A stretch of 64,000 nucleotides of DNA, taken from a virus. Made by a program: the position numbers and the translations under genes. This document shows, piece by piece, positions 1,303 through 53,250 of the stretch; positions within the stretch are counted from its first letter, which is position 1, and each line of letters opens with the position of its first letter. Under the pieces are notes generated by a model, which was not told where the DNA came from, did no database searches, and saw only the letters and a list, made by a program, of their open reading frames with translations. Location of the stretch: the IMG/VR virus record IMGVR_UViG_3300032093_009077, positions 3,939-67,938 of that record; one strand, written 5' to 3'.

Positions 1303-1886
1303 GTGAAGAACTTTTAGTTATTAATACGGACAACGTTGTAAAAGAAACCGAGATTGTTGAACCTTTGCCACTTTATGGTGAAGGATTTGATATGCTTGAC
1401 GATGAAATTCCTTTGTACACAGACCCTTTGCCAAATCCATTGATGAGCAAACTTGTGGAAAGGTTAAAACTTACCATGAAACTTTATGGTGGTATTGGTC
1501 TTTCAGCCAATCAATGTGGTGTTTATCAAAGAGTATTTGTCCTTGGCCATGGTGATTTTCAATTAGTCTGTATTAACCCAAAAGTTTTAGAAATATCGGA
1601 AGAAACAATTAAATCTGATGAAGGCTGCCTCTCTTATCCAGGATTATTTGTTAAGATAGAAAGACCTGCTGCAATTAAGGTTGAATTTATGAATGAAACT
1701 GGTGAAGTAAAACAGATGATGTTAGAAGGGTTAACTGCTCGGTGTTTCTTACATGAAACAGAACACATGAATGGCGGAAGATTTATACAACATGTTAAAC
1801 CTGTTGCCATGAGATTGGCAAGACAAAAACAAATTAAAAGAGTTAAGAAAGTTACAAGAGCACAAAAGAATGGCATACGCCTTTGA
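1299..1886 (+). CDS. def: Peptide deformylase
   Basis: GIGLSANQ, EGCLS and HETEH motifs. Confidence 0.93.
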   Translation: MSEELLVINTDNVVKETEIVEPLPLYGEGFDMLDDEIPLYTDPLPNPLMSKLVERLKLTMKLYGGIGLSANQCGVYQRVFVLGHGDFQLVCINPKVLEISEETIKSDEGCLSYPGLFVKIERPAAIKVEFMNETGEVKQMMLEGLTARCFLHETEHMNGGRFIQHVKPVAMRLARQKQIKRVKKVTRAQKNGIRL

Positions 1887-3150
1887 TCCAAAAGATGATG
1901 TAGAAACACAATGGAAAAAATGGTCAGAACTGGAAGAAATTTCTGACCTTGATTTTACCATTGATGATTTGCGTGAACGCACTATACAAGAACTTACCTA
2001 TGTTTCTAAAATGGATGTGCGTGAATATACTTTGTTTCAAAAGTGGTGTGAAGTGCAAGAACGTTACCCTACAGTAACAGTTAATGATTTGTGGGAAGGC
2101 GAGAAACGGGTTCTAGAGGATGATAAACAGCGTGAACTGATACCTCAACTGAAGAACAACATTTGGATGCCAGCCAATGTTGACGATTATCTGAATCTAG
2201 AACCCGAACTCCTTTACACAAATAAAGAAGGTGATTTGCCAGAAACATGGAATTGTATTCGTACTTTTTCATCCACAATGAAAAACAATGCCAACATTGG
2301 TAGAAATTTAAATTTTATTGTAAGAGATAAAGTAACAAAAAAATATCTAGGTGTTATTTGTATTTCATCTGACTTTTTAGATTTGACACCTAGAGATAAC
2401 TTTATTGGTTGGTCGAGAGAAAAGAAAACTCAAGGTGCTATGATCAACCATACTGCCATCGGCTCTACGATTGTGCCTTTACAACCTCTTGGTTATAATT
2501 ATGTTGGTGGCAAATTATTGGCTTTGCTTTGTTTGGCCGATCCTATACAACAACTATGGGAAAAACTATATGGTGATAAATTAGTTTCTGTAACAACAAC
2601 ATCACTCTATGGTAAAACAAAAGCTGGTGGGTTGTCCCAATACGATAATTTGGATTACTGGCAGCCGATGGGCTTTACTAGTGGTTCAGTATCGTTTGAA
2701 CCATTGAAAGATACACGATACATGATTCGTGAATGGCTTCGTAAGAATCATACTCGTAAATACTTTGAATGGTATGTAGCAAAGAAACCTTCAGGTCAAC
2801 CACATAAGCGTGACCACAAGAATCGTTCTTTGAACTTTGCTTACTCGCAAATGAAAATACCAAAAGAATTGATTCGTAGTGAACATGCTCGTGGCATTTA
2901 TTTTACACCTTTGTATGATAAGACTTGCGAATTTCTCCGAGGCGATCATGATGGCAAAGATATGAAAAAACTCTTTGATACTAGCGTTGAGAGCCTAAGT
3001 AATATATGGAAGATGAAACATGCGAAACCACGTATCAGTATTCTAAAGAAAAAAGGTACAGTTTCACATGAAACACTTTTCTATGATGACCTTACCGTGT
3101 TATCATGGGAAGAAACAAAAGCTAAATATCTTATCCAGATTGGCAGATAA
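1870..3150 (+). CDS. DUF4338/DruA-like domain protein (paralog of 25149..26261)
   Basis: IVPLQPLGYNYVGGKLLA and TTSLYG...SQY motifs shared with 25149..26261. Confidence 0.6.
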   Translation: MAYAFDPKDDVETQWKKWSELEEISDLDFTIDDLRERTIQELTYVSKMDVREYTLFQKWCEVQERYPTVTVNDLWEGEKRVLEDDKQRELIPQLKNNIWMPANVDDYLNLEPELLYTNKEGDLPETWNCIRTFSSTMKNNANIGRNLNFIVRDKVTKKYLGVICISSDFLDLTPRDNFIGWSREKKTQGAMINHTAIGSTIVPLQPLGYNYVGGKLLALLCLADPIQQLWEKLYGDKLVSVTTTSLYGKTKAGGLSQYDNLDYWQPMGFTSGSVSFEPLKDTRYMIREWLRKNHTRKYFEWYVAKKPSGQPHKRDHKNRSLNFAYSQMKIPKELIRSEHARGIYFTPLYDKTCEFLRGDHDGKDMKKLFDTSVESLSNIWKMKHAKPRISILKKKGTVSHETLFYDDLTVLSWEETKAKYLIQIGR

Positions 3151-3577
3151 ACCCTTTATGATTTGATTGTTTTCCTTTAGAAACATTTATCATACCACTT
3201 TGAAAAAGACCATTTTCCTTACAAAATTTTGTTAAGTTTTTTATTAATAACTTTGTTCCATCTGGACAAATTATTAACCATTCTTTAGAGAGTGTATTTG
3301 CTATTTTTTCTTTTTGAGAGTTATTATTTGGAATTCCTAAATTCCAAGGAATTTTTCCTTTATTAGCAATACTTTGTTTTATTTTTGTTTCTTGTGAAAG
3401 TTTTTTACCTAAATTAATTTCACGCAGAATTTGTTTTGTTGATTCAGGAAGTTTTTCTCCTGGAATTCCACCATAAGAATGTGTGGCATTTTTAGGTATT
3501 TCTAGTGGATTATTTTTACACCATTCACGGAGATGTATAATGAATGGGTCATCATTTTTAGGTAAATAAATATTCAT
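3131..3577 (-). CDS. NUMOD3/HTH DNA-binding protein; homing-endonuclease-derived, no nuclease domain visible
   Basis: KKLSQETKIKQS, KGKIPWNLG and NLTKFCKENGL...HKGF repeats; own late promoter and RBS. Confidence 0.7.
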   Translation of the reverse strand: MNIYLPKNDDPFIIHLREWCKNNPLEIPKNATHSYGGIPGEKLPESTKQILREINLGKKLSQETKIKQSIANKGKIPWNLGIPNNNSQKEKIANTLSKEWLIICPDGTKLLIKNLTKFCKENGLFQSGMINVSKGKQSNHKGFICQSG

Positions 3578-3643
3578 GCTGGCATAGTTCCTTTATGTTA
3601 GAGTGGATGCAGACGGCAATCTGGCGATCCACACCTATTTATA
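3578..3643 (-). promoter_or_regulatory. T4-type late promoter TATAAATA followed by a hairpin leader
   Basis: TATTTATA at 3636-3643 on +; GTGGAT/ATCCAC stem with inner CAGA/TCTG stem at 3603-3632; AAGGA SD. Confidence 0.75.
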
Positions 3644-3654
3644 CCTTAAAAATG

Positions 3655-3683
3655 TTGACTTTCAGCCTACATAAGAGTATAAT
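3655..3683 (+). promoter_or_regulatory. sigma70-type early promoter upstream of the tRNA-like RNA
   Basis: TTGACT-N17-TATAAT. Confidence 0.8.
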
Positions 3684-3693
3684 ATCCTTTCAT

Positions 3694-3756
3694 GCGGTGA
3701 GTCCGAGACAACCTACCCCCGTAGGTAGACAGGTTTAACTCCTGTTAACCGCTCCA
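3694..3756 (+). ncRNA. Minimal tRNA-like RNA with encoded CCA
   Basis: Acceptor GCGGTGA/TAACCGC + T + CCA; T arm ACAGG-TTTAACT-CCTGT; ACCTA-CCCCCG-TAGGT arm; 3-bp GTC-CGA-GAC mini D arm. Confidence 0.7.
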
Positions 3757-3763
3757 CCAAACA

Positions 3764-3848
3764 TAAGTAAGTACTTACTAACATCTACCAGGTAGTGTTG
3801 TTTTTATACAACAAATGCATTGACAAAGCTCCAAAATGGTAGTATAAT
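3764..3848 (+). promoter_or_regulatory. Consensus sigma70 early promoter with upstream palindromic boxes
   Basis: TTGACA(3820)-N17-TATAAT(3843); palindrome AGTAAGTACTTACT 3766-3779; TGTTG-N8-CAACA 3796-3813. Confidence 0.85.
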
Positions 3849-3878
3849 GGTAAGATATAGTCAAAAAGGTGTCATAAC

Positions 3879-6224
3879 ATGTCTTTTACTGCCGAACAAA
3901 AATCACAATTAGCAAAACTTCTGGCAACCGAGAATCTAACGGTTCAACACCAGAAAATCTCTACTGCTAAATTCGATCCTAAAAACCGTGTGCTTTACCT
4001 GCCAATCTGGCAAAACATGACAGGTCTGATTTATGACTTGTTGGTAGGCCATGAAGTTGGTCATGCTCTGTATACTCCTGCTGAAGGTTGGCATGATGCA
4101 GTTACCGATACTGATAAAAATAAAAACTTCAAAAACTTTTTGAATGTTGTTGAAGATGCTCGCATTGAGAAAAAAGTTAAGCGCAAATATCCTGGCTTAA
4201 ATACTGCCTTCAAATTGGCATATCAAGAGTTAAACTTGCGTGACTTTTTTGGCATTAAAGGCCGTGATGTGAATGAAATGCCTTTCATTGATCGCCTGAA
4301 CCTTTTCAGTAAGTCACAATGGACTGCCACATGGATTCGATTCACAGCTCAAGAAGAACTGCTTGTCAAAGAAGTGCAGGCGGCCGAAACTTGGGATGAT
4401 GTGCTTCGTATCACAAACAAAATCTATCAGTATTCAAAAGAAGAACAACATGAAATGGCACTTGAATACCATGATGAACTAATGCGTCAGATGGCTGATG
4501 ATGCTGACGAATATGGTGAAGAAGAATATGGTGATGATGTTGATGATGAATTCGATGACGAATATGGTTTTGGCCAAGGTGATGGAGACGAATTTGAAGA
4601 AGGTGAAACACAATCACAGCGCAGTCAATCTAGTGATGAAGAAGCTGGCGAAGAAAATTTAGAAGGCGGTCAGTTTATCAACCATGATAAAACTTCACAT
4701 CCTGGTGATAAAGACCAATTTGATCCTACATGCCAGACAGATCAAAACTATCGCCGTAATGAATCACAACTGCTCGATGACAAGTGTAAAGAATTTGTTT
4801 ATGTAGATATTCCCAAACCTAAATTGCAAAACATTATTACTCCTGCCAAACGTGTGCAAGAGTTAATGACAAAAGGTTACAAACAATTTATTAATGAGAA
4901 AGTAATTCCGGCTGAAAAACCGATGCAGTTGCTCAATGAATTTAAACGGCGTAATGAACGATATGTAAGTTTGTTGGCCAAAGAATTTGAAATGCGTAAG
5001 GCAGCTAAGTCGTATAGTAAATCTAAACTGTCTGATACAGGTGATATTGACATTAACAAACTTTCATCTTATAAGTTTGATGACAATATCTTCCGTAAAG
5101 TGATGATGACACCTAAAGGTAAGAACCATGGCCTAGTATTGTTACTTGACCGTTCTGGTTCAATGTCACGCAATATGACTGGATCTATTGAACAGATTTT
5201 GGTGCTATCAATGTTCTGCCGCAAAGTGAACATTCCTTTTGTTGTGTATGGTTTTACTGAATCGTCACATGTACATGCCATTGATTTAGGCATTGACCCT
5301 AATGACAGAGAGTTTAAGGTTGAATATGTTCATACAGAAAAACATAAGTGTTTCTCTGATAATGCTGGTGAAATGAAATTTGATAATGTGCATTTGCGTG
5401 AGTACCTTAATTCCAAAATGTCCAATGCCGAGTTTACTGGCGCATTGAAGAATATGTGTTTATTGATGGAAGGTTATAAAGAAGATCGGCGTTATTCACC
5501 AAGACCAGAATCAGAACAATTGAACAACACTCCAATGACACAAGCTATTGTTGCAACTGCTGAAATTATGGCAAATTTTAAACGCAATCATAACTTAGAT
5601 ATTTGTAGTCTGGTTGTTGTGCATGATGGTGATGCTGACAGTTTAGGAAATTATTGGTCAGAAGAAGAAGTTATTGATAACGCAACGAATCAACCTAAAA
5701 TGAAGAAAGTTCCTAGGTATTACAATTCTAGTGATCGAGTTTACATTATCCGTGATCGGCAGAATAAGTTTGAAGCCAAAATGACTTTAAATTTTAGTGA
5801 AGATATTCCAATTAACATTTTGAAATGGTTTAATAAGACAACTGGTGCTCGTGTGTTTGGTTTCTTTATTGCTGAGGGTCGTAGTGAAGCAAAGCATATT
5901 GCCAGAAACAAATACCTCTATGAAAATGGTAAGAACTATTGGGTTATGGGTGCTGAAATTGGTCGTGAAGCTGCCGAAGAATTGGTCAAGAAAACTTTGA
6001 AACAATTCAAAGATGAAAAGTTTCTTACAAGCAAACTACCAGGTTATGAAAACTTTTTCTTTATCTCTGGCGGCCAAGAATTGACCACAGATGATGAAAA
6101 TGGTATTGAAGTAGAAGGCAAATTCTCTGCTCGTAAATTGGCAACTGCCTTTGCCAAGTATAATAAGAAGCGAGCGGTAAATCGTGTGTTAGTATCTCGG
6201 TTCATTCAAGGTATTGCCGCATAA
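3879..6224 (+). CDS. CobT-like protein: HExxH metallopeptidase-like N-terminus, acidic linker, VWA domain
   Basis: HEVGH...NVVEDARIE; MIDAS DRSGS, NTP, HDG; adjacent to a MoxR ATPase. Confidence 0.8.
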   Translation: MSFTAEQKSQLAKLLATENLTVQHQKISTAKFDPKNRVLYLPIWQNMTGLIYDLLVGHEVGHALYTPAEGWHDAVTDTDKNKNFKNFLNVVEDARIEKKVKRKYPGLNTAFKLAYQELNLRDFFGIKGRDVNEMPFIDRLNLFSKSQWTATWIRFTAQEELLVKEVQAAETWDDVLRITNKIYQYSKEEQHEMALEYHDELMRQMADDADEYGEEEYGDDVDDEFDDEYGFGQGDGDEFEEGETQSQRSQSSDEEAGEENLEGGQFINHDKTSHPGDKDQFDPTCQTDQNYRRNESQLLDDKCKEFVYVDIPKPKLQNIITPAKRVQELMTKGYKQFINEKVIPAEKPMQLLNEFKRRNERYVSLLAKEFEMRKAAKSYSKSKLSDTGDIDINKLSSYKFDDNIFRKVMMTPKGKNHGLVLLLDRSGSMSRNMTGSIEQILVLSMFCRKVNIPFVVYGFTESSHVHAIDLGIDPNDREFKVEYVHTEKHKCFSDNAGEMKFDNVHLREYLNSKMSNAEFTGALKNMCLLMEGYKEDRRYSPRPESEQLNNTPMTQAIVATAEIMANFKRNHNLDICSLVVVHDGDADSLGNYWSEEEVIDNATNQPKMKKVPRYYNSSDRVYIIRDRQNKFEAKMTLNFSEDIPINILKWFNKTTGARVFGFFIAEGRSEAKHIARNKYLYENGKNYWVMGAEIGREAAEELVKKTLKQFKDEKFLTSKLPGYENFFFISGGQELTTDDENGIEVEGKFSARKLATAFAKYNKKRAVNRVLVSRFIQGIAA

Positions 6225-6270
6225 GTTGTTGGGTTTTTTATATAATTAAATTTGATAGGAGTTTTATATT

Positions 6271-7464
6271 ATGAGTAAACGTGCCGAAGTTCGTCAAAAG
6301 TTTCTTTCTGCCCTACTTAAACTTGGCAGACCTACTGCAACAAAGGAAGAAATTACCGATATTTGTAAGAGTATTGGTATCGCTCATCCTTATTGGTTCA
6401 CTAATGATGAAGCGAACCGTGTAAAACGTGGCGTTTATAGAGTGCCTTCTACTCAACTAGATACCATGCCTGCTCTACAAGCTCAAGTGATCCCTATGGC
6501 TAAACCTGTTGAAAAATCAAATCATCGTATCAGTAATGTTACGACAGACCTAGATGAAACAAATCTAGTGCCGACTGCATACAAAAACTATGTGCCGTTT
6601 GGTAACTTTGAAGATGTAATGTCAATCGTTTCATCGATGCGTTTTTTTCCTGTTTTCATTTCTGGTCATTCTGGCAACGGTAAGACCATGTCAATTGAAC
6701 AGGCATGTGCCAAAGCTAAACGCAAGTTTGTTTGCGTATCGATGACACCTGAAACCGATGAGAGTGATCTACTTGGTAACTATGTTCTGATTGATGGTAA
6801 TATGGAATGGCGTGATGGTCCTGTGACTACTGCTGCTCGTCAAGGTGCCGTTCTGTGTATCGATGAGATTGATTATGGTGCTCAGAATCTTTCCTCTTTG
6901 CAGCGTGTACTTGAAGGCAAACCGTTTATGCTGAAAAAGAAAGGCGAATTGATTTCACCTGCACCTGGTTTCACCGTGTTTGCTACGGCAAATACAAAAG
7001 GTAAAGGTTCAGATGATGGTCGTTATATGTTCACCAACGTTTTGAATGAAGCTTTTCTTGAGCGTTTTCGTACCACAATGGAACAAGAATTTCCGCCAGT
7101 AAAAACTGAGCGTAAAATTATTGAGAAAGAATTGGCATCAGTTGGCAAAGCTGACGATGATTTCGCCGAGAAACTTGTTACTTGGGCTGATGTAATTCGT
7201 AAAACATTTGCTGATGGCGGTTGTGATGAAGTGATTTCTACTCGCCGCCTTGTGCATATCGTTGAAACATACGGCATCTTTGGTGACAAGATGAAGGCAA
7301 TTACTTTGTGTTTGAATCGCTTTGATGATGACACTAAGGCATCGTTTGTTGACCTGTATACCAAAGTTGATGCAGGAGCTTCTGCCGATGATATTCTGGC
7401 ACCTCAACCAGATCCTGTGGCAGAAGAAGTCAAACCTGAAGCTGATGCAGCATCGCCTTTCTAA
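6271..7464 (+). CDS. cobS: CobS-like MoxR AAA+ ATPase
   Basis: GHSGNGKT Walker A, IDEID Walker B, ATANTKGKG, NEAFLERF, ISTRRL. Confidence 0.88.
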   Translation: MSKRAEVRQKFLSALLKLGRPTATKEEITDICKSIGIAHPYWFTNDEANRVKRGVYRVPSTQLDTMPALQAQVIPMAKPVEKSNHRISNVTTDLDETNLVPTAYKNYVPFGNFEDVMSIVSSMRFFPVFISGHSGNGKTMSIEQACAKAKRKFVCVSMTPETDESDLLGNYVLIDGNMEWRDGPVTTAARQGAVLCIDEIDYGAQNLSSLQRVLEGKPFMLKKKGELISPAPGFTVFATANTKGKGSDDGRYMFTNVLNEAFLERFRTTMEQEFPPVKTERKIIEKELASVGKADDDFAEKLVTWADVIRKTFADGGCDEVISTRRLVHIVETYGIFGDKMKAITLCLNRFDDDTKASFVDLYTKVDAGASADDILAPQPDPVAEEVKPEADAASPF

Positions 7465-14105: not shown

Positions 14106-14666
14106 TTGAAAACCGTAGGTGACAAGTTAGAAAAATTTTTAGTTGTAGGTATTAATCCAGGTAAAGACGATTTTTTTGATATTACAGAAAAATCATTTGA
14201 AGGCAAATGGAAAGTAATTGTTTACTATCCAAAAGATTTTACATTTGTATGCCCAACAGAAATTGTGGCTTACGATAAACTCTTTCAAGATTTTGCGGAT
14301 CGTGATGCGGTTCTATTAACAGGTTCTACAGACAATGAATTCTGTAAATTAGCATGGCAACGCTCCCATGAAGATCTTTCTAAGATCAAACACATTCAGT
14401 TTGCTGACACTCAGCGTCCAGGTTATGACGTAGATAGTGAGTATCGTGATTTAGGTCTTATTAGTCAACTTGGTGTATTCTATAAGCCAGCTGGCGCAGC
14501 ATTACGTGCTACATTCATCGTTGATCCAGATAATGTGATTCAACATGTTACAGTAAACAATCTAAATGTTGGCCGTTCACCAGAAGAAACTTTGCGTGTA
14601 TTAGATGCTTTGCAAACAGGTGAATTGTGTGCATGTAATCGTGCCGTTGGTGGTGAAACTTTATAA
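14106..14666 (+). CDS. ahpC: Peroxiredoxin AhpC
   Basis: [21 protein letters not shown]; TTG start with AAGGAG SD. Confidence 0.95.
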
Positions 14667-15874
14667 TGCAATTTCCAATTTATCTTGATTACTCATCTAC
14701 AACTCCTGTTGATCCTAGAGTTGTAGAATCCATGATACCTTTTTTATATCAAAATTTTGGTAATCCTGCTTCAAGAAGTCATGCTTTTGGATGGAAGGCA
14801 GAAGATGCTGTTGAAGAAGCACGAAAAAATGTAGCTGATTTAGTTAACTGTGATTCGAAAGAAATAATTTGGACTTCTGGTGCTACTGAATCGATTAATT
14901 TGGCATTAAAAGGTGCCTGTAAGTTCAATAAACAAAAAGGCAATCATGTTATCACAATCAAAACAGAACACAAAGCAACATTAGATACATGTAGAGAATT
15001 AGAAAGAGAAGGATTTGAAGTAACTTACTTAGATGTAAAAGATGATGGTTTAATTGATATTGAGAATTTTATTTCTTCTATAAAATCTTCTACAATTTTA
15101 GTTTCTGTAATGTTTGTAAATAATGAAATAGGTGTAATACAAGATATTGCTAAATTAGGAGAAATTTGTAGAGAAAAAGGAATTATTTTTCATGTTGATA
15201 GTGCTCAAGCAGCAGGAAAAGTAGACATTGATTTGCAATCATTAAAAGTAGATTTAATGTCATTTTCTGCACATAAAGTTTATGGGCCGAAAGGCATTGG
15301 AGCATTATTTGTAAGAAGAAAACCTAGAGTTAGATTAGAAGCACAGATACATGGTGGTGGCCACGAAAGAGGTTTAAGATCTGGGACTTTACCAACACAT
15401 CAAATTGTAGGCATGGGAGAATCTTTCAAACTTGCTAAACAAGAAATGCACAAAGAAAATGATAATATCAAAAAAATGCGTGATCTTTTACTTGATGGTT
15501 TAAAAGAAATTCCTCATGTTTATATTAATGGTTGTTTAAAGAATCGTGTACCACACAATTTAAATATAAGTTTCAATTATATTGAAGGTGAATCATTATT
15601 GATGGGCATAAAAGATATTGCTGTTTCATCTGGTTCAGCATGTACTTCAGCTAGTTTAGAACCATCATATGTTTTACGTGCGTTAGGAAGGTCAGATGAA
15701 CTTGCTCATTCATCGATTAGATTTTCTATTGGACGATTTACTAAAGAAGAAGATATAAATTTTACGATAGATCTACTGAAGAAAAAAGTAAATCATTTAA
15801 GGTCGATGAGTCCTTTATGGGAAATGGTACAAGAAGGAATAGACCTTGATAAAATTGAATGGGCAGCACATTAA
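14666..15874 (+). CDS. iscS: Cysteine desulfurase IscS
   Basis: [19 protein letters not shown] (PLP lysine), [23 protein letters not shown]. Confidence 0.97.
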
Positions 15875-15890
15875 AATCAAGGAGAAATAA

Positions 15891-16403
15891 ATGATTTGGG
15901 TCGATCAAATTAAGGAGGCATTACCAGAATATGCGAAAGATACAAAACTCAATTTGGATTCCGTTATTAATCGTAGCACTATTGATGTTACCATTGCTCA
16001 AGGTTGCGCCCTCGCAGCAGCAATGGCAACAGGTAACGGAAAACTCGTTGCTTTTATTCAGTCAGGTCTGGAGGATACCAGAGAGCGTGACGCAGCGTTA
16101 ACAGCTGCATCGCTCATGGCTATGACTAACATTTGGTATCCATTTGTTGAAATGGCAAATGATGATCGTTTGAAAGGTCTTCCTGCACAATTAAGAATGA
16201 ACGCAATCGCAACACATGGCGGCACTAGTAAAGTAAATTTTGAAGCATATAGTTTGGCTGCATCAATTGTTGGCAAATGTCATTTCTGTATTAGTGCTCA
16301 TTACAGTACTTTGAAACAAGAAGGTTACACAGTCGAACAATTGCGTGATATTGGCCGTATTGCTGCTGTAATTACTTCTGTTGCAAAAGTATTAAATAGT
16401 TAA
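15891..16403 (+). CDS. ahpD: Alkyl hydroperoxide reductase AhpD
   Basis: LPEYAKDTKLNL, MAMTNIWY, GKCHFC..AH. Confidence 0.92.
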   Translation: MIWVDQIKEALPEYAKDTKLNLDSVINRSTIDVTIAQGCALAAAMATGNGKLVAFIQSGLEDTRERDAALTAASLMAMTNIWYPFVEMANDDRLKGLPAQLRMNAIATHGGTSKVNFEAYSLAASIVGKCHFCISAHYSTLKQEGYTVEQLRDIGRIAAVITSVAKVLNS

Positions 16404-24916: not shown

Positions 24917-25152
24917 AAGTAGTTCAATTTGAACCAAAGGTTGAAAAAACAAGTAAGAAGATGAAAGATGACTTGATTGAAGTTCTTGATGCATTGAGAG
25001 AAAAAATTGACAAAGATGAAGTCACAGAATTTGTAATATCTTCAATGCATGTTGATGGTGAAGTTGAAATCTATGCCTGCACCAAAGATTTTGTTGGTGC
25101 CATTGGACTATTTGAAGCAGGTAAACATAATTTATTAACACAATACGAATGA
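24913..25152 (+). CDS. Hypothetical protein
   Basis: ATGA coupling on both sides. Confidence 0.65.
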   Translation: MKVVQFEPKVEKTSKKMKDDLIEVLDALREKIDKDEVTEFVISSMHVDGEVEIYACTKDFVGAIGLFEAGKHNLLTQYE

Positions 25153-26261
25153 ACCTAGATCAAGCACTACATTGTTCAAAAGTCTTTGAAAATTATTTCA
25201 AGGATTTTAATCGCATTGATGAATACATGCGTGAACAAAAATTGAATTCATTGGCCGAATTACCTTTTGCTTTGCCTGGTTGTGGTCCCGAAGAAGATTT
25301 GTTTTCTGACTTCACTATGAATCCGCAAGATATGGATTTTGAAGTCATTGAAATGGAATCTAGTCGTTGGCAATTGTATCTTGACATTATTTCATCACAC
25401 AACAATCTTTCCAGTCCAGGCAGAAACTTACGATTAGCTGTATTAGAAAAAAATACTCAGAAGTGGGTTGGTTTTATTCGTATTGGTTCGCCAACAATTA
25501 TGATGAAACCGAGAAATGAATTGCTTGAGTGTGTAATCACCAATGAAGAAAGTACAACAAAGTCATTTAATAAAGCCGCAGCAATGGGATTTGTAATTGT
25601 GCCAGCGCAACCTTTCGGTTTCAATTATCTTGGCGGAAAGTTACTTGCAGGTATCTGTTGTTCACATGAAGTGAAATCGATGCTTGACAAAAAGTATAGC
25701 ATGAATACTTGTTTGTTTGAAACAACTTCATTGTATGGTAGTTCCAAATCTGTATCACAATATGACGGCATGAAGCCCTACCTCAGATTTGCTGGCACTA
25801 CTGATTCAGATTTTCTGCCAATGATGCATGGCAAACCTTATGAAGATTTAGTAAAATATGTAGAAGATGTAAATGGTGGCCCTATTGTACCTGAAGATGC
25901 AAGTAGTCGCAAGTTGAAGATCATTAATACTACAATTGCGATGACAAAATCAGCATTAAAGAGTCATAAAGATCATTATGATTCATTTATGAACATCATC
26001 GAAAAAGCCAAAAGTCTGACCGAAAAGAAAAGATATTACTATTCAAATTATGGTTATTCAAACTATAAAGATGTAGTACTTGGCAAGACCGACAAACTTG
26101 TGCCAGACAAGGAAAACTATGACAAACATGGTCTGGCCAACATCATAAAGTGGTGGAAGAACAAGGCTTGTAGTAGATTTACAACACTTCAGACAGAAAA
26201 CCGCATAAGAACAGACATGGAAGTATGGACTGGCGATAAGGAGATTGACATTATACGGTAA
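25149..26261 (+). CDS. DUF4338/DruA-like domain protein (paralog of 1870..3150)
   Basis: PGRNLR, IVPAQPFGFNYLGGKLLA, ETTSLYG..SQYDG. Confidence 0.6.
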   Translation: MNLDQALHCSKVFENYFKDFNRIDEYMREQKLNSLAELPFALPGCGPEEDLFSDFTMNPQDMDFEVIEMESSRWQLYLDIISSHNNLSSPGRNLRLAVLEKNTQKWVGFIRIGSPTIMMKPRNELLECVITNEESTTKSFNKAAAMGFVIVPAQPFGFNYLGGKLLAGICCSHEVKSMLDKKYSMNTCLFETTSLYGSSKSVSQYDGMKPYLRFAGTTDSDFLPMMHGKPYEDLVKYVEDVNGGPIVPEDASSRKLKIINTTIAMTKSALKSHKDHYDSFMNIIEKAKSLTEKKRYYYSNYGYSNYKDVVLGKTDKLVPDKENYDKHGLANIIKWWKNKACSRFTTLQTENRIRTDMEVWTGDKEIDIIR

Positions 26262-27435: not shown

Positions 27436-28077
27436 ATGTACGGATTCGTCTATTTGACCACCAATAAAATTAATGGTAAAAAATACATCGGAATGTGTAA
27501 AAACACACATGAAAAAAATTATTTGGGTTCTGGAAAATTATTAAAATCTGCCATAAAAAAATATGGAAAAGAAAATTTTGAAAGAGTTATATTGCAAGAA
27601 TGTCAAAATTTTGAGGAATTGAGTAAATCAGAAGAATATTGGATAAAAAAATATAATGCTGTTGAAGATAATACTTTTTATAATTTAACATCTGGTGGTT
27701 TTGGTGGTAACAGCGACTATTTAAAAGAGTATTGGAATAAATTTACCAAAGAAGAACGAAAAATTTGTAGGCAATGGATTAAAAGAGATGTTTATGGTAA
27801 AAATAATCCAATGTATGGTAAAAAACACTCAGAAGAAACTAAAAGAATCATAGGTTCAAAAAGTGTGAATAGAAATTGGAATAAACCTAACCATAAGGGA
27901 GAAAAAAATCCTAGAGCCAAAAAAGTTCTAGTTGAAATGGATAATTTGGTAAATCAATTTAATTGTCTAAAAACTTTTGCTAATAGTATTAAAAATATTC
28001 CTTACTCAACATTAAAGAGTATCGCAAAAGATGGAAGATATTCAAAAAAATATAATTTAAGAATAACATATGTTTAA
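27436..28077 (+). mobile_element. Free-standing GIY-YIG homing endonuclease with NUMOD3 (Seg-like)
   Basis: GFVY...KKYIG, YLGSG, FYNL, NPMYGKKHSEETK; very AT-rich. Confidence 0.9.
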
Positions 28078-36214: not shown

Positions 36215-38706
36215 AATTTAAAGATTTTTTATTTGAGCAGAGAGAAAAACACGCTGTTATGGCATTTGGTCGCCTTAATCCACCAACTCTCGGACACGAA
36301 AAACTAGTCAATAAAGTCAAAAGTATCGCACAAAAGGTTGGCGGTACTGCACATATCGTAGTTTCGCACTCTCAAGATTCTGAGAAAAATCCACTCTCCG
36401 CAGCACAAAAATTAAAACATGCTAAACGTGCATTTCCTGGTGTCCATGTTATGGCATCAGACAAAGAGGCACCAAATTTTTTAGCACAGGCCGCCAAGTT
36501 ACACAAAGCAGGTGTGACTCATTTTCATATGGTTGGTGGCCAAGATCGTGTAGAAGAATTTCATAATCTTCTACACAAATATAATGGTGTAAAAGGACCA
36601 CATGGTCGTTTTAATTTTAAAAAGATAGAAGTACACTCAGCAGGTGATAGAGATCCTGATTCTGAAGGTGTAGAAGGTATGTCAGCAAGTAAGATGAGAG
36701 AACACGCAAAAACAAATAATTTTGCTCACTTTAAAAAAGGTGTGCCATCAACAATGTCACATGAACATGCATTTGAAATGTTCAAAGATGTTCGTAAAGG
36801 TATGGGATTGAAAGAAGATGTGAACACCGATTTTGAAGAATTACTTAATGAAGGTGTGCATGACAAATCAATCTTCAAAGCAGTTTTCTTGGCAGGTGGT
36901 CCTGGTTCTGGTAAAGATTATGTTTTGGATAATACATTACAAGGACATGGTCTTGTTGAAATTAATTCTGATAAGGCATTAGAGTTTTTAATGGACAAAC
37001 ATGGTCTTGATAAAACAATGCCTGCAACCGAGAAACATCGCCGTGATTTAGTTCGTGGTAAAGCCAAGAATATGACTGAGTTGCGTCAACGCCTTGCATT
37101 AATGGGTCGTAATGGTCTTATCATTAATGGTACAGGTGATGATGCAGAAAAGATTGGAACAATTAAAAAGAAGTTAGAAGAATTAGGTTACGAGTCATCA
37201 ATGGTAATGGTGAATACTGCTGATGATGTGTCGATGCAAAGAAACATTGAACGTGGCCAAAGAGGTGGTCGTACAGTACCAGAAGAAATAAGAAAACAAA
37301 AATGGGATGCATCACAAAATGCAAGACCAAAGTATGCAGAAATGTTTAAAGATAACTATCATGAGTTTGACAATTCACAAGATTTGCGTACTGCACCACC
37401 AGAAGTTGTAAAAGCAAAAACAGAAGAATTAACACAAATTTATAAAAACATTCAAAAGTTTACAAATAAACCAGCGAAGAATGATACATCTAAAAATTGG
37501 ATTGCTTCTGAATTACAGAGAAAAGATCTGATGAAAGTAAACAAAGAAGTTGAAGTAAAAGAACCACATTCATCATCTAAGGCTGCAGAAGATGCCAAGA
37601 AAAGAGGTTTACAATATTATGGTTTTGGTAGATATGGAACGAATGGTAAAGTTACATTCCGTTCTGTGCATGATAGATTAGTTGAAGTACCGAAAGAACC
37701 TATGAAAAAACCTGTCAACGAAGAATTTGAAGAATTGATTGCAGAAGATTTACGCAAGTGGTTTAGTAAAACAGATCCAGAAGGTGGTTGGAAAAGAATT
37801 AACAGTAAAGGTGAAGCAATTGGTCCTTGTGCAAGAGAACCAGGTGAACCAAAACCAAAATGTATGTCAAATGAGAAGCGTGCTAAATTAAGTAAAAAAG
37901 AAAGAGCATCAGCAGTTGCAGCTAAACGCCGCCATGATCCTGTTGCTGATCGATCTGGTAAAGGTGGAAAACCTGTAAACGTTTCTAATTTTGGTAAAGG
38001 TAAATTATCTGAATCATATGAATTATCCGATAGAGATTCATTAAATGTATTATTGTTAGGCACTTCAATTGATGAAGTTGATCTTAATAATTTTGAAGAA
38101 CAAAAGAAACCAAAATATCTTACGGATAAAAATGGTAAAGTAAGAACATTTATGCTTCGAGCAGCTGCTGCAAGAGAAGCACATACACAGAATGGTATTG
38201 TAATGCCATATAAAAATGGTTATGTAATTAAATTAAACGAGGAGAATGAAGATGTTAAACTTTCTGAAGAATCTATTTTCAACACCACAACCAGAAGTTC
38301 TGGACTCATTAGCGAAAACACCAAGCCAGAGAAAAGAAGAATCATCGGCGGCACCACAGCCTACGGTTTCGCAAAAAAGCACGCCTACGCCGGAGAAGAA
38401 ACCAGCAGTGATGAAGAATCCTCCGGCCAAATCAAAAAAATCACCCTCGCCGAAATCTGGAAAAGGAAAAAAGAAGTAAAAGAATCAATTGACAAAGGCA
38501 TCGAACCAGGTATTTCTATGGCAGCTGCCGGCGAATCAATTGGTCGAGATATGGGTGAAAAGAACCGTAAAAAAGATGGTAAAGTTACGGTTACAAATGA
38601 AATGACTGGTGATGAAACTGGTGCATCGATTGGTGCTCAGAAAGAAGATGAATTAAAGAAAAAAGGAATTAACCTTTCAACATTTAAAACAAAGAACCCA
38701 ATATGA
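36211..38706 (+). CDS. Multidomain protein: HxGH-type cytidylyltransferase-like domain, zeta-toxin-like P-loop kinase and further small modules
   Basis: FGRLNPPTLGH and SASKMR; AGGPGSGK with INSD and IINGTG; DLRKWF...PKC module. Confidence 0.8.
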   Translation: MKFKDFLFEQREKHAVMAFGRLNPPTLGHEKLVNKVKSIAQKVGGTAHIVVSHSQDSEKNPLSAAQKLKHAKRAFPGVHVMASDKEAPNFLAQAAKLHKAGVTHFHMVGGQDRVEEFHNLLHKYNGVKGPHGRFNFKKIEVHSAGDRDPDSEGVEGMSASKMREHAKTNNFAHFKKGVPSTMSHEHAFEMFKDVRKGMGLKEDVNTDFEELLNEGVHDKSIFKAVFLAGGPGSGKDYVLDNTLQGHGLVEINSDKALEFLMDKHGLDKTMPATEKHRRDLVRGKAKNMTELRQRLALMGRNGLIINGTGDDAEKIGTIKKKLEELGYESSMVMVNTADDVSMQRNIERGQRGGRTVPEEIRKQKWDASQNARPKYAEMFKDNYHEFDNSQDLRTAPPEVVKAKTEELTQIYKNIQKFTNKPAKNDTSKNWIASELQRKDLMKVNKEVEVKEPHSSSKAAEDAKKRGLQYYGFGRYGTNGKVTFRSVHDRLVEVPKEPMKKPVNEEFEELIAEDLRKWFSKTDPEGGWKRINSKGEAIGPCAREPGEPKPKCMSNEKRAKLSKKERASAVAAKRRHDPVADRSGKGGKPVNVSNFGKGKLSESYELSDRDSLNVLLLGTSIDEVDLNNFEEQKKPKYLTDKNGKVRTFMLRAAAAREAHTQNGIVMPYKNGYVIKLNEENEDVKLSEESIFNTTTRSSGLISENTKPEKRRIIGGTTAYGFAKKHAYAGEETSSDEESSGQIKKITLAEIWKRKKEVKESIDKGIEPGISMAAAGESIGRDMGEKNRKKDGKVTVTNEMTGDETGASIGAQKEDELKKKGINLSTFKTKNPI
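38252..38479 (+). CDS. Candidate overprinted small Pro/Lys-rich protein
   Basis: GAGGAG SD 7 nt before ATG; MLNFLKNLF amphipathic start; alternative frame inside 36211..38706. Confidence 0.5.
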   Translation: MLNFLKNLFSTPQPEVLDSLAKTPSQRKEESSAAPQPTVSQKSTPTPEKKPAVMKNPPAKSKKSPSPKSGKGKKK

Positions 38707-49677: not shown

Positions 49678-51474
49678 ATGAACAATATCGTTCACGGCAT
49701 CACCGTTGATTTCACTAGAGATTCGTTATTTGATGAATTAGGCATTAAAAGGTTAAAAGAAAGTTATATGCGTGAAGATGAAACTTCACCACAAGAAAGG
49801 TTTGCATATGTCTCTAAACATTTTGGGTCGAACATTGAACACTCGCAAAGGCTTTATGAGTATTCTTCTCGACATTGGCTTTCTTATAGTACTCCCATTT
49901 TATCTTTTGGTCGGAGTAAGCGTGGTCTTCCTATTTCATGTTTTCTTCCATATTTGGATGATTCTGCGGAAGGCCTTGTTGATTGTTTATCTGAAGTTAA
50001 CTGGCTCTCAATGTTAGGTGGAGGTATAGGAATTGGAATTGGAATTCGTAGTTCAGATGATAAGTCGGTTGGTGTTATGCCTCATTTGCGTACCTATGAT
50101 GCTTCATCACTTGCTTATCGGCAAGGCCGAACAAGGCGTGGTTCTTACGCTGCTTATCTTGATATTTCTCATCCTGATATTCTCATTTTTTTAGAGATGC
50201 GTAAACCAACAGGCGACCAAAATATGCGTTGCTTGAATCTACATCATGGCATCAATATTACAGATGACTTCATGTATCTAATCGAAAAGTGTATGTTAGA
50301 CCCAAATGCAGATGATACATGGGAACTTAAAGACCCACATAGTGGTGAAGTGCGTGATACGGTACCTGCTCGTGAATTGTGGCAACGCATACTTGAGATT
50401 CGTATGCAAACAGGTGAACCATATTTGCATTTCATTGATACAAGTAATGCAGCGATGCCAGAGTTTCAAAAGAAATTAGGCCTATCAATCAAACAATCTA
50501 ATTTGTGTAGTGAAATTATTTTACCAACAGATAAAGAACGCACAGCCGTATGTTGTTTATCATCAGTTAATTTGGAGTATTTTGATGAATGGAAATCTGA
50601 CCCATTATTTTTGCGTGACGTTGCCGAAATGCTTGATAATGTCTTGCAGTACTTTATTGACAATGCTCCTGACACTATTGCTCGTGCAAAGTATAGTGCC
50701 CAGCGGGAGCGTTCTATTGGTATCGGTGCTCTTGGGTTCCATGCTTATTTGCAGCGAAACAATTTGGCTTGGGAATCTGCTTTGGCCACATCAGCCAACA
50801 ACAAAATCTTTAAACACATTAGAGCACACTTAGATCAAGCAAACATATATCTTGGTAAACAAAGGGGTGAAGCTCCTGACGCTAAAGGTACCGGTTTACG
50901 CTTTAGTCATATGCTCGCTATTGCTCCTAATGCTAGTTCATCCATCATTATGGGTAACACTAGCCCTTCTGTTGAACCTTTTCGAGCTAATGCTTATCGA
51001 CAAGACACATTGAGTGGTGCATTTTTAAACAAGAACAAATATTTGGATAAAATCATCAAGGAGAAATGCGATGCAGACAGTAAACTCGACTACAATGAGA
51101 TTTGGTCATCAATTATCTCAAACGATGGATCCATTCAACACCTTGACTTTCTCGATGAATGGACGAAAGATGTGTATAAAACCTCTATGGAAATTGACCA
51201 AAGATGGGTTGTGGACCATGCAGCTAACAGACAAAGTTACATTGACCAAGCGCAATCTATCAATCTCTTTTTTCGACCAGATGTTAACGTAAAATATCTC
51301 CATGCTGTACACTTTCAAGCATGGAAACAAGGGTTGAAAACACTTTACTATTGTCGTTCTGAAAAATTGGCCAAAGCCGATAAAGTAAGTAAAAAGATTG
51401 AACGCCAAGTGATACAAGAAATTGATTTGAAACAATTGGCGACTGAAGAAGTGTGTTTGGCCTGTGAAGGTTAA
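49678..51474 (+). CDS. nrdA: Class I ribonucleotide reductase alpha subunit (short, no ATP cone)
   Basis: PISCF, SNLCSE, APNASSS, LKTLYY, C-terminal CLACEG. Confidence 0.96.
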   Translation: MNNIVHGITVDFTRDSLFDELGIKRLKESYMREDETSPQERFAYVSKHFGSNIEHSQRLYEYSSRHWLSYSTPILSFGRSKRGLPISCFLPYLDDSAEGLVDCLSEVNWLSMLGGGIGIGIGIRSSDDKSVGVMPHLRTYDASSLAYRQGRTRRGSYAAYLDISHPDILIFLEMRKPTGDQNMRCLNLHHGINITDDFMYLIEKCMLDPNADDTWELKDPHSGEVRDTVPARELWQRILEIRMQTGEPYLHFIDTSNAAMPEFQKKLGLSIKQSNLCSEIILPTDKERTAVCCLSSVNLEYFDEWKSDPLFLRDVAEMLDNVLQYFIDNAPDTIARAKYSAQRERSIGIGALGFHAYLQRNNLAWESALATSANNKIFKHIRAHLDQANIYLGKQRGEAPDAKGTGLRFSHMLAIAPNASSSIIMGNTSPSVEPFRANAYRQDTLSGAFLNKNKYLDKIIKEKCDADSKLDYNEIWSSIISNDGSIQHLDFLDEWTKDVYKTSMEIDQRWVVDHAANRQSYIDQAQSINLFFRPDVNVKYLHAVHFQAWKQGLKTLYYCRSEKLAKADKVSKKIERQVIQEIDLKQLATEEVCLACEG

Positions 51475-52252
51475 TGTTGTACTAAGAACTTGCGATAGAG
51501 TATCTTTGGCTACCGATAGAATAGTGCCAAAGGATGAATGTATAGTAAGATGTTTACATTCACTTGTGTCATCATTGGATGAATATGGCGACTATTCATT
51601 ACATATTATAGATGATAACTCAAGTGAAGAAACAAAAAATAAAATTAAAGAGATTGCACATTCTGCTACATTTAATTTTTTACCAGAAAGAAATCAAGAT
51701 GGGTTAAATGGTAAACAGAAGTCACGTTACTCAGTTAAAGTTGCCTATGATTACATTGATACTTTACCTGAAGATGAATTAGTTTACATTGTAGAAGATG
51801 ATTATTTGCATTATAATTATTCAATACAAAGAATGATTGATGCATGGAAGTTTTTTAGTAGTTTTGATTTAAGTGTAGACATTGGTATATTTCCACAAGA
51901 TTTTGCACAATTATATCTACACCCAAGAAATTTATATAACGAAACATACGTCAGGCCATGTATTGTGGTTGCAGGACCAGATCGTTACTATCGCACTACA
52001 TGGTTTACACATGAATCATTTATGGTTCGTAAATCAGTAATAACAAAATATAAAGAAGAATTTGATAAACTAATGGAGATTGGTGAAATAGATGGCAAAT
52101 GGGAAGGCACATGTTTATCAAATGTATGGGTAAAACCTGATGTAAAGATGTTGATGCCCATGAAAACACTTGCTATACATGTAAGTGCCAAAGAAGATAT
52201 TTCATTCTTCTGCGATGATTTTTATAGGCTATGGGAACAAAACGCATATTAG
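51464..52252 (+). CDS. GT2-like glycosyltransferase
   Basis: IIDDNSS, YIVEDDYLH. Confidence 0.7.
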   Translation: MKVNVVLRTCDRVSLATDRIVPKDECIVRCLHSLVSSLDEYGDYSLHIIDDNSSEETKNKIKEIAHSATFNFLPERNQDGLNGKQKSRYSVKVAYDYIDTLPEDELVYIVEDDYLHYNYSIQRMIDAWKFFSSFDLSVDIGIFPQDFAQLYLHPRNLYNETYVRPCIVVAGPDRYYRTTWFTHESFMVRKSVITKYKEEFDKLMEIGEIDGKWEGTCLSNVWVKPDVKMLMPMKTLAIHVSAKEDISFFCDDFYRLWEQNAY

Positions 52253-53250
52253 TTGTAGGTGCTGGCTTTGCTGGTGCCGTAGTTGCTCGTAAGTTACATG
52301 AGGCTGGTTATGATGTAACTGTAATAGATCGCCGTGATCATATTGCTGGTAATGCTTATGATTTTCAAAATGGTTTTGGTATTCGTGTGCATAGATATGG
52401 TCCACACCTATTTCATACAAATAACGAAGAAGTATTTAAATGGTTGACCAAGTTTACAGATTGGGTGCCGTACGAACACCACATCAAGGCCAAATTGAAA
52501 GATGGTACATTTGTACCTTTTCCTGTAAATAGAAATACATTGAAACATGTAAAGAAAGATGATGTATTTAAAGTATTCTTTGAACCTTACTCAAAGAAGA
52601 TGTGGGGTGAATACTATAAAGAGTTAAGCAAAGATGTTTTTGATCGTGTAAAGCCTAGAGATACAAATGATGATAGGTGTTTTACAGATGAATATCAGTA
52701 TATGCCAGTTGATGGTTATACTAAGATGTTTGAAAACATATTGAACGGCATCAAAGTTAAATTAAGTACTGATTATCATAAATCAATGGAAAATGATTAT
52801 GACCATATATTTAATTCGATGGCCATAGATGAATATTATGATTATTGTTATGGTGAATTGCCATATCGATCAATACGTTTTCATACACACACAGTACCAA
52901 TTGATGAAATATTACCATGCACCACAGTAAACTTTACTGACGATAATAAGTTTACAAGAGTTACAGAATGGAAACAAATACCAATGCATGGTACCAATAT
53001 GAATTATAGTACAGTTACATATGAAGAACCTTGTGATTATAAAGAAACTGGTGAAAAGTATTATCCAGTTATCACAGAAAAAAATAAAGAGTTGTACAAG
53101 AAGTATAGAGAAATACAAAATGATAAGGTGACATTTATTGGCCGTTGTGGCCTTTATACCTACATGGATATGCATATGGTTATTTCGTCATCGTTATCAA
53201 TTGCAAAAAAATTTATAAGAGAGAACAAATATGGTAAAGAAGAAGCATAA
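52231..53250 (+). CDS. glf: UDP-galactopyranose mutase
   Basis: VGAGFAG, HIAGNAYD, HRYGPHLFHT, YYP, GRCGLY.YMDM. Confidence 0.93.
   Translation: MGTKRILVVGAGFAGAVVARKLHEAGYDVTVIDRRDHIAGNAYDFQNGFGIRVHRYGPHLFHTNNEEVFKWLTKFTDWVPYEHHIKAKLKDGTFVPFPVNRNTLKHVKKDDVFKVFFEPYSKKMWGEYYKELSKDVFDRVKPRDTNDDRCFTDEYQYMPVDGYTKMFENILNGIKVKLSTDYHKSMENDYDHIFNSMAIDEYYDYCYGELPYRSIRFHTHTVPIDEILPCTTVNFTDDNKFTRVTEWKQIPMHGTNMNYSTVTYEEPCDYKETGEKYYPVITEKNKELYKKYREIQNDKVTFIGRCGLYTYMDMHMVISSSLSIAKKFIRENKYGKEEA

Follow-up and report, generated by a model that had tools for sequence, protein, structure and literature searches.

Several RNAs keep the form of a tRNA and do not decode. mascRNA and the herpesvirus tRNA-like RNAs are tRNA-shaped, carry a reduced anticodon arm and undergo tRNA-like processing; they are eukaryotic or animal-virus RNAs, and we know of no aminoacylation, amino-acid identity set or linked transferase for any of them. 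In Staphylococcus aureus and S. epidermidis, the non-proteogenic (NP) tRNA-Gly species NP1 to NP3 are reported to be glycine donors for FmhB, FemA and FemB, to have TGC or TGT T loops, A49-U65 and A51-U63 pairs and weak EF-Tu binding, and to belong to a lineage described in that source as confined to staphylococci (PMC7826273). In phage Mu, the GNAT protein Mom is reported to move glycine from Gly-tRNA-Gly to DNA adenine while refusing Gly-tRNA-Ala, and the same report has it probably reading the acceptor end (PMC13219725). Here we describe a 63-nt RNA gene, the mini-tRNA, in a 64,000-nt stretch of viral DNA (hereafter the window), which covers bases 3939-67938 of a 67.9-kb viral contig of 41% estimated completeness (IMG/VR record IMGVR_UViG_3300032093_009077). 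The mini-tRNA descends from tRNA-Gly, belongs to a large RNA family and lies downstream of a gene encoding a protein of the DUF4338/DruA family. In the reading that we favor, and to which we give about an even chance, it would be a non-decoding glycyl donor for that protein, a predicted GNAT-type enzyme.

An initial annotation of this locus had described a tRNA-like RNA with its arms, a T discriminator and CCA, and all of these parts are present where it had placed them (Table 1). The acceptor stem consists, in order, of five Watson-Crick pairs, a G.A mismatch and an A-U pair. Folded in isolation, the 63-mer takes the cloverleaf as its minimum-energy structure (-22.3 kcal/mol, 70% of the ensemble), with a z score of -3.45 and 1 of 200 shuffles equally good, and model R2 finds the mini-tRNA as its sole match on the 67.9-kb contig, at 93 bits. 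As the initial annotation had predicted, ARAGORN misses it, calling no tRNA gene and no tmRNA in the window. Similarly, an Rfam scan of the window at E <= 10 returned nothing tRNA-like, a search of the whole contig with RF00005 at E <= 1 gave no match, and no Rfam family matches the mini-tRNA. Of the two consecutive CCA triplets to which attention had been drawn, both are there, but only the first is conserved; the bases that follow it vary freely among relatives.

Uncultured T4-like, pelagimyophage-related phages have a large family of RNAs of 63-70 nt, and the mini-tRNA belongs to the most strongly reduced class in it (63-66 nt). An exact 29-mer comprising the T arm and the 3' end of the element occurs in 29 viral contigs, with an almost invariant core and differing flanks. 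When a gapped pattern specifying only the two ends was used, at least 117 contigs matched, with 85 distinct sequences among the matches listed; seven were set aside (six that are probably chance matches in coding sequence and one of 72 nt that is tRNA-like but different), which leaves 78 sequences of 63-70 nt. A second pattern, specifying the D hairpin and the T loop and leaving the acceptor unconstrained, matched at least 116 contigs and gave 51 strings, three of them chance matches; the 43 distinct cores of the window's class among the matches listed for this pattern form the class-a set used below. Class a, to which the window element belongs, has a tetraloop at the tip of its 63-66-nt fold. 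Members of a second class (67-68 nt) have a 9-bp tip stem and a pentaloop of the form U-N-C-C-C, members of a third (68-70 nt) have T loops such as TGCAACT, and intermediates such as L103 bridge the classes. ARAGORN, run on 48 loci, missed every one of their elements. Neither the window element nor two members of the other classes had a blastn match among cultured phages, and the class-a pattern had 30 matches in cellular genomes, none with the flanks of the family. No description of the RNA family was found in the literature, the supplementary files of papers being outside that search. In some relatives the mini-tRNA is present as a tandem double copy; in L271, L272, L273, L275 and L278, downstream of the DUF4338 gene, and also in L079, L096, L119 and L074, the two copies lie 3-5 nt apart and differ in acceptor sequence.

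Comparison of these sequences shows that the structure is real and selected, with compensatory changes in all four helices. In class a, the share of paired cells is 91.8%, compared with 83.0% in shuffled alignments, and 10 of the 21 pairs have changed on both sides; the covariation score of 0.262 (shuffled, 0.093) was reached by none of 500 shuffles, and controls in which the alignment was slid had only 36-52% of cells paired. The 39 sequences of the 67-68-nt class behave similarly, with 98.5% of cells paired (shuffled, 88.0%), 11 of 22 pairs changed on both sides and a covariation score of 0.380 (shuffled, 0.160; 0/500 shuffles reach it). An alignment of 69 matches across the classes has 95.9% of cells paired (shuffled, 75.6%), 18 of 22 pairs changed on both sides and a score of 0.575 (shuffled, 0.168; again 0/500), counts that lean towards structure because this alignment was fitted to a covariance model, and that include two canonical tRNA-Gly genes and one probable false match. 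Within class a, 5 of the 6 tip-stem pairs and 3 of the 5 T-arm pairs have changed on both sides, the T arm with 100% of its cells paired. The first four acceptor pairs are invariant (G-C, C-G, G-C and G-C in 43/43), and pair 5:68 is U-A in 29 sequences and A-U in 14. Pair 6:67 is non-standard in 40/43, so that the G.A mismatch picked out in the initial annotation turns out to be itself conserved, and pair 7:66 is A-U in only 25/43. The D hairpin is invariant within class a, as are both the D and the T loops, and across the classes every Watson-Crick combination occurs at the third pair of the D stem (A-U 24, U-A 20, G-C 18 and C-G 5). The pair that closes the tip loop in class a is C-G in 23 sequences, U-A in 19 and U-G in one, and is never unpaired, and the 32:38-like closing pair of the 67-68-nt class is A-U in 30 and G-C in 9. 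Since these closing pairs covary, class a has a 4-nt loop and the 67-68-nt class a 5-nt loop, and the 6-nt anticodon loop of the initial annotation has to be redrawn as a CCCC/CCCA tetraloop on a stem of 5-6 bp. Judged by eye, the tip loops of other members seem to have 6 or 7 nt.

The mini-tRNA descends from tRNA-Gly. Among 169 canonical tRNAs from 78 loci, the acceptor signature GCGG...CCGCU is present in 29 of 30 tRNA-Gly genes and in 0 of 139 other tRNAs, and in many relatives a phage tRNA cluster contains the mini-tRNA and, 5-7 nt away from it, a canonical tRNA-Gly. Consistent with this origin, a class-b model scored two neighboring tRNA-Gly genes (28 bits) above the window element (16.6 bits). 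Identity over the whole length favors tRNA-Gly only slightly, at 0.615 against 0.584 for the next tRNA. The part of the RNA that has been kept is the part read in charging. G1-C72, C2-G71, G3-C70 and U73 are invariant in all 43 class-a rows and in the 78-row family alignment, which was patterned on both ends, and in class a the invariance of U73, of the encoded CCA and of pairs 1-4 holds even though the search pattern left the acceptor end free. All family members among the matches listed have CC in the tip loop. The bacterial glycyl-tRNA synthetase (GlyRS) identity set is given as G1-C72, C2-G71, G3-C70, U73 and CC (PMC9976931, PMC7826273). The invariant positions of the mini-tRNA are thus the bacterial tRNA-Gly charging signature, from which charging itself is predicted. 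The tRNA-like domain of a tmRNA was also considered as an identity for the element and rejected, as G3-C70 is invariant (the alanine identity would be G3.U70) and ARAGORN reports no tmRNA.

Features associated with decoding have been lost. All 26 canonical phage tRNA-Gly sequences compared have GG in the D loop and the TTC triplet in the T loop, whereas the mini-tRNA family is without D-loop GG and the TTC triplet is found in 0 of its 78 members, its place being taken by TTT in the window element and by NGC in the other classes. In class a, the T-stem pairs 49-65 and 51-63 are A-U in 37/43 and 42/43 sequences, respectively, and the arm that ends in the tip loop is about 3 bp shorter than in the 67-70-nt classes. 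Taken with the tetraloop and its covarying closing pair, and with a loop size that depends on the class, the missing D-loop GG and T-loop TTC make it well supported that the mini-tRNA is not a decoding tRNA, as had been suggested from the window alone. Two near-complete class-a genomes (100% and 95%) have one mini-tRNA each, together with distant clusters of 26 and 22 canonical tRNAs, tRNA-Gly among them. Because these genomes also keep canonical tRNA-Gly far away, the mini-tRNA does not look like a product of decay. The tRNA cluster of one complete 214-kb relative (L353; G010:C1:9200-17000) holds 28 ARAGORN-called tRNAs, including tRNAs with CUA and UUA anticodons (1288-1362 and 6433-6506) that could be stop-codon suppressors.

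The mini-tRNA is closely tied to one protein-coding gene. In 73 of the 74 class-a loci with enough upstream sequence, a DUF4338 gene lies directly upstream of the element; for the other classes the figure is 19 of 57. We also counted in the reverse direction, starting from the DUF4338 protein. The closest 80 of its 545 relatives are 72-93% identical to it, and 77 of these loci have at least 150 nt of downstream sequence. Of these, 72 have a mini-tRNA, one has a canonical tRNA-Gly, three have nothing and one is too short; 69 of the 72 mini-tRNAs lie within about 70 nt of the end of the gene, two lie behind an insertion of about 0.5-0.8 kb, and one is at 1.3 kb. Model R2 alone matched 66 of the 80 protein-chosen loci, always on the strand of the gene, with several tandem doubles. 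L267 has a canonical tRNA-Gly(UCC) at the exact position of the window element, with the same promoter layout and downstream hairpin, and L045, whose "peptidase" is the closest relative (88% identical) of the one encoded downstream of the mini-tRNA in the window, has neither the DUF4338 gene nor the mini-tRNA. These counts fit a mini-tRNA that was placed repeatedly, or anciently, next to a GNAT-type gene. The window encodes a second DUF4338 protein, 26% identical to the first, and the same pair is present in 5/5 other phage contigs tested, in which the element stands in a tRNA cluster. The gene for the second paralogue follows a gp41-type helicase gene.

PF14236 (DruA/DUF4338) is the sole Pfam match of the 426-aa DUF4338 protein at E <= 10. 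DUF4338 is named a GNAT domain in a comparative-genomics paper (PMC10853773), and a language-model comparison gave a weak lead to PF22559 (score 0.84); on these grounds the protein is a putative GNAT-type enzyme. The 85 open reading frames of the window were scanned against PHROG and Pfam, and the Fem, Mom, L/F-transferase and tRNA-repair families are not represented among them. A cyanophage homologue labeled "methylcarbamoylase mom" by its depositor was considered as a link to Mom and set aside, as it proved to be a PF14236/phrog_19197 protein and not Pfam Mom.

The RNA also appears to be a gene in its own right. The TTGACT-N17-TATAAT promoter that had been proposed about 10 nt before the RNA is indeed found there, with an 11/12 score, and G1 lies 10 nt past the -10 hexamer. 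Fixed-distance promoters scoring at least 9/12 are present in 55 of 92 class-a contexts and 44 of 73 contexts of the other classes, compared with 40 of 825 shuffled controls.

A non-decoding RNA that is strictly kept, has a promoter of its own and stands behind an acyltransferase-type gene suggests a private carrier rather than a broken tRNA. We propose that the mini-tRNA is transcribed from its early-type promoter, with a start probably some 2-4 nt before G1, and that its 5' end would be trimmed by RNase P and its 3' end down to the encoded CCA. Because G1-C72, C2-G71, G3-C70, U73 and the tip-loop CC are kept, host GlyRS would be expected to charge it with glycine. By analogy, it should be a poor ligand of the ribosome and of EF-Tu, since the 7-nt anticodon loop and the D/T elbow signature are lost and the A49-U65 and A51-U63 pairs are weak. 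It could then keep activated glycine, as a private pool, available to the GNAT-type DUF4338 protein encoded directly upstream, in a mode analogous to that of the NP tRNA-Gly species and Fem transferases or of Gly-tRNA-Gly and phage Mu Mom; DNA, a protein N terminus and an envelope precursor are candidate acceptors. Among the four roles put forward in the initial annotation, that of an aminoacyl donor gains most, from the invariant tRNA-Gly charging signature and from the linkage in both directions (73/74, and 72/77 among the closest relatives), while that of a Y-RNA-like adaptor has nothing in its favor, with no Ro/Rsr-type gene among the 85 open reading frames and no Rfam match. A bolder version, which we regard as tentative and would sooner bet against, is that the mini-tRNA works together with the DUF4338 protein as a pair private to the phage and orthogonal to translation, in which a host-charged 63-nt glycyl carrier, invisible to EF-Tu and the ribosome, would feed a GNAT that makes a Mom-like, glycine-derived modification of phage DNA. 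By extension, DruA of the bacterial Druantia system would also be an aminoacyl-tRNA-dependent enzyme, as would the DUF4338 modules that occur in fusions with other DNA-conflict proteins.

Several observations weigh against the proposal that the mini-tRNA donates glycine to the DUF4338 protein. When the RNA is folded as part of a 123-nt transcript, the cloverleaf is no longer the structure of lowest energy and the tip arm is paired with a downstream hairpin, so the order of folding would matter. Five metatranscriptome RNA runs contain part of 3100-6300, and in the contigs of four of these runs over 3300-4300 the segment 3678-3784 is uncovered, one contig ending at 3677, although these libraries are not of the small-RNA type and so are uninformative either way. 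Recognition of the class-a RNA by GlyRS on the anticodon side may fail, because the arm is shortened and the CC of the window element sits in a tetraloop, whereas GlyRS is normally presented with C35 and C36 in an anticodon loop. The enzyme itself offers no direct link to Mom: hhalign comparisons with Mom alone and with a 37-row Mom alignment gave probabilities of 0.1-0.3 and no similarity, none of 64 DUF4338 relatives matched the Mom family PF25680 in Pfam at E <= 1, and a DUF4338 profile compared with the sequences in the Protein Data Bank showed no relation to any solved structure. The linkage counts, moreover, are inflated by shared descent, because the relatives counted are the closest 80 of the 545, and the linkage is not obligatory. 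All five contigs that have the element in a tRNA cluster are free of tRNA-like sequence behind the DUF4338 gene, and in the cultured Pelagibacter phage Mosig, which carries a DUF4338 gene, neither a tRNA-Gly nor a mini-tRNA was found with R1, R2 or RF00005.

The conserved acceptor end could also be addressed to an enzyme of the host. The RNA might act as a sponge or decoy against host toxins specific for the acceptor end of tRNA-Gly, such as TacT-type GNATs or CCA-pyrophosphorylating toxSAS of the FaRel2 type; it would present the acceptor stem and CCA that they recognize, stay out of translation itself and thereby spare the real tRNA-Gly pool. The invariant part of the RNA is indeed what such toxins read, TacT being reported to read U73 and G71 (PMC9976931) and FaRel2 to read G1-C72, C2-G71, G4-C69 and Pu5-Py68 (PMC11559606), and the early-type promoter and the tandem double copies of some relatives would suit this role. 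We nevertheless consider it unlikely, since it leaves unexplained both the position directly after the DUF4338 gene in 73/74 class-a loci and the canonical tRNA-Gly at the same spot in L267, a stoichiometric decoy would be a weak answer to a catalytic toxin, and pair 5:68 is U-A in 29/43 sequences, which is not the purine-pyrimidine pair preferred by FaRel2. The linkage data apply equally, however, to an RNA that is the partner of the DUF4338 protein without being its glycine donor, whether as a substrate acylated on its aminoacyl group or on a base, or as an inhibitor, scaffold or guide. AtaT, TacT and TmcA are reported as GNATs that have aminoacyl-tRNA as their substrate (PMC13219725), and the invariance of the D and T loops in class a suggests specific contacts with a protein. 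Conservation of the full GlyRS determinant set together with CCA points instead to charging as the selected property, and the canonical tRNA-Gly that replaces the mini-tRNA in L267 is easier to reconcile with a general role of Gly-tRNA than with a tailor-made inhibitor, so that a partner of this kind strikes us as distinctly unlikely.

Two further readings make less of the element. It would be a glycine tRNA of unusual shape that still decodes if the loops of some members, which resemble 7-nt anticodon loops with NCC, were to be taken at face value, and the cultured relative HTVC008M does have an odd tRNA-Gly(ACC) that ARAGORN can call. The covarying closing pair of the 4-nt class-a loop and the covarying 32:38-like pair that makes a pentaloop in the 67-68-nt class, the difference in loop size between the two, and the canonical tRNA-Gly already present in complete genomes render this highly improbable. 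Alternatively, the element might be a decaying pseudogene, a set of chance hairpins or a cis element (terminator or leader) of a neighboring gene. The initial annotation had reasoned that a full canonical tRNA at this place in relatives, with no compensatory changes in the short form, would speak for simple decay. The canonical tRNA-Gly does exist in L267, but the short form is rich in compensatory changes, so that this is not a case of simple decay. The canonical tRNA-Gly of L267 and the uncovered, in itself uninformative, stretch in the metatranscriptome contigs leave some room for decay or a cis element, whereas compensatory changes in every variable helix, a near-invariant core amid diverging flanks, a promoter at a fixed distance with a separate 12/12 promoter for the downstream gene, retention of the element despite the homing-endonuclease gene that separates it from the upstream gene, and the occurrence of the same RNA within tRNA clusters all speak for an independent RNA gene, and we give readings of this sort hardly any credence. 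We therefore continue to favor a glycyl donor for the DUF4338 protein.

Table 1. Features of the mini-tRNA locus and of the second DUF4338 gene; positions are those of the window
Feature	Position	Strand	Basis or remark
DUF4338/DruA-family protein gene, 426 aa, proposed enzyme partner	1870..3150	+	Pfam PF14236, E 6.7e-19
Homing-endonuclease gene, HNH type	3131..3577	-	PHROG homing/HNH endonuclease matches; separates the DUF4338 and RNA genes
Sigma-70-type promoter of the RNA gene	3655..3683	+	TTGACT 3655-3660, 17-nt spacer, TATAAT 3678-3683; 11/12 matches
Mini-tRNA, 63 nt, tRNA-Gly-derived, 3' end at the encoded CCA	3694..3756	+	Cloverleaf minimum-energy fold, covariation, model R2
Acceptor 5' strand	3694..3700	+	Pairs with 3746-3752
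Minimal D hairpin	3701..3709	+	3 bp, 3-nt loop CGA, without GG
Anticodon-arm remnant	3711..3726	+	6-bp stem with variable outer pair; tetraloop CCCC at 3717-3720
AG linker, two bases	3727-3728	+	Sequence
T arm	3729..3745	+	5 bp, 7-nt loop TTTAACT
Discriminator U73 (T at 3753) and encoded CCA (3754-3756)	3753..3756	+	Invariant in class a
Second CCA	3757..3759	+	Not conserved; sequence beyond the first CCA varies among relatives
Inverted repeat TGTTG-N8-CAACA	3796..3813	+	Between the RNA gene and the next promoter, just upstream of the latter's -35
Separate consensus promoter of the downstream gene	3820..3848	+	12/12 matches
CobT-like "peptidase" gene, 781 aa	3879..6224	+	phrog_459, E 3.9e-175; weak CobT match
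Second DUF4338 paralogue, 370 aa, in the replication block	25149..26261	+	PF14236, E 2.1e-9; phrog_19197, E 3e-132

The flanks of the mini-tRNA are conserved in part. Downstream, the TGTTG-N8-CAACA inverted repeat is kept within 200 nt in 77 of 89 class-a contexts, with a loop that ranges from T-rich to A-rich, and is possibly an operator or an unusual terminator; no canonical or consensus terminator was scored after the RNA gene, and 3760-3812 folds no better than its shuffled versions. The CobT-like "peptidase" gene lies downstream of the element in 69 of 69 class-a loci. The HNH gene between the DUF4338 gene and the RNA gene, by contrast, is close to the mini-tRNA in only 2 of 94 other class-a contexts, and is an insertion that lies outside the mini-tRNA/DUF4338 system. 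Further free-standing homing-endonuclease-type genes, a set comprising HNH and GIY-YIG-like types, are found at 27436-28077, 35591-36214, 56986-57399 and 61512-63038.

Elsewhere, the window carries replication genes of the T4 type, encoding a gp46-like protein, clamp and clamp loader, RegA, DNA polymerase, UvsX, gp41, gp61, NrdAB and Td. An 831-aa protein encoded at 36211-38706 joins a cytidylyltransferase-like N terminus to a kinase domain of the Zeta-toxin/AAA_33 type, and sugar-nucleotide and glycosyltransferase genes lie near its gene (30771-33710 and 51464-53250). Auxiliary metabolic genes at 14106-16403 and 54377-56405 encode a peroxiredoxin, a class-V aminotransferase of the cysteine-desulfurase type and CMD-family, NifU-like, Fe-S assembly and isocitrate-lyase-family proteins.

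Overall, the 63-nt tetraloop class is new, as are its near-constant linkage to DUF4338 counted both ways, the presence in one relative of a canonical tRNA-Gly at this site and the coexistence of the mini-tRNA with full sets of canonical tRNAs. If the glycyl-donor reading is true, the mini-tRNA would be the first phage-encoded tRNA that is reserved for non-ribosomal work and linked to one particular enzyme gene, and the large, uncharacterized DUF4338/DruA family, which is also represented in the Druantia defense system, would acquire a testable function in aminoacyl-tRNA-dependent transfer. The mini-tRNA is about the smallest natural RNA that may still accept charging by GlyRS, which would inform our understanding of tRNA identity, and could be a natural template for translation-orthogonal carrier RNAs. 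It also exposes a gap in annotation, in that standard tRNA finders miss the entire family.

The RNAs and enzymes with which the mini-tRNA can be compared include the canonical tRNA-Gly genes of the same phage group, which share its acceptor signature (29/30), are often adjacent to it and, in L267, occupy its position. They differ in having the D-loop GG, a TTC T loop, a 7-nt anticodon loop and a length of 73-75 nt, and in being called by ARAGORN and RF00005. A further case is the odd tRNA-Gly(ACC) of Pelagibacter phage HTVC008M (KC465899.1 91140-91213; L315 1501-1574), which lies 3.9 kb downstream of a DUF4338 gene, in a phage for which a published table gives 0 tRNAs (PMC7029224). HTVC008M is of the same lineage as the window phage, and its DUF4338 protein is 55% identical. 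Like the mini-tRNA, its tRNA-Gly(ACC) has GCGG...CCGCUCCA ends, no D-loop GG and an AGC-type T loop; unlike the mini-tRNA, it is 74 nt long, has a 7-nt anticodon loop and is called by both ARAGORN and RF00005 (49.5 bits).

With regard to mechanism, Mom resembles the proposed system in being a phage GNAT-type enzyme that uses charged tRNA-Gly, and the acceptor end is also the invariant part of the mini-tRNA. Mom, however, uses host tRNA-Gly without a dedicated RNA, and the neighbor of the mini-tRNA belongs to Pfam DruA/DUF4338 and not to Pfam Mom. The staphylococcal NP tRNA-Gly species provide a parallel on the side of the RNA. Like them, the mini-tRNA is a tRNA-Gly paralogue that exists beside proteogenic ones, keeps G1-C72, C2-G71, U73 and CC, lacks the T-loop TTC and, in class a, has A-U at 49-65 and 51-63 in most sequences, and its proposed role is likewise the non-ribosomal donation of glycine. 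The staphylococcal RNAs have a cloverleaf of full size and an anticodon loop with UCC, whereas the mini-tRNA, at 63 nt, has a tetraloop and a D hairpin of 3 bp; it is encoded by a phage, and it stands beside a DUF4338 gene and not a Fem transferase gene, with no FemAB family among the scanned proteins of the window. The mini-tRNA is thus an analogue of the staphylococcal NP tRNA-Gly species and not a member of their lineage.

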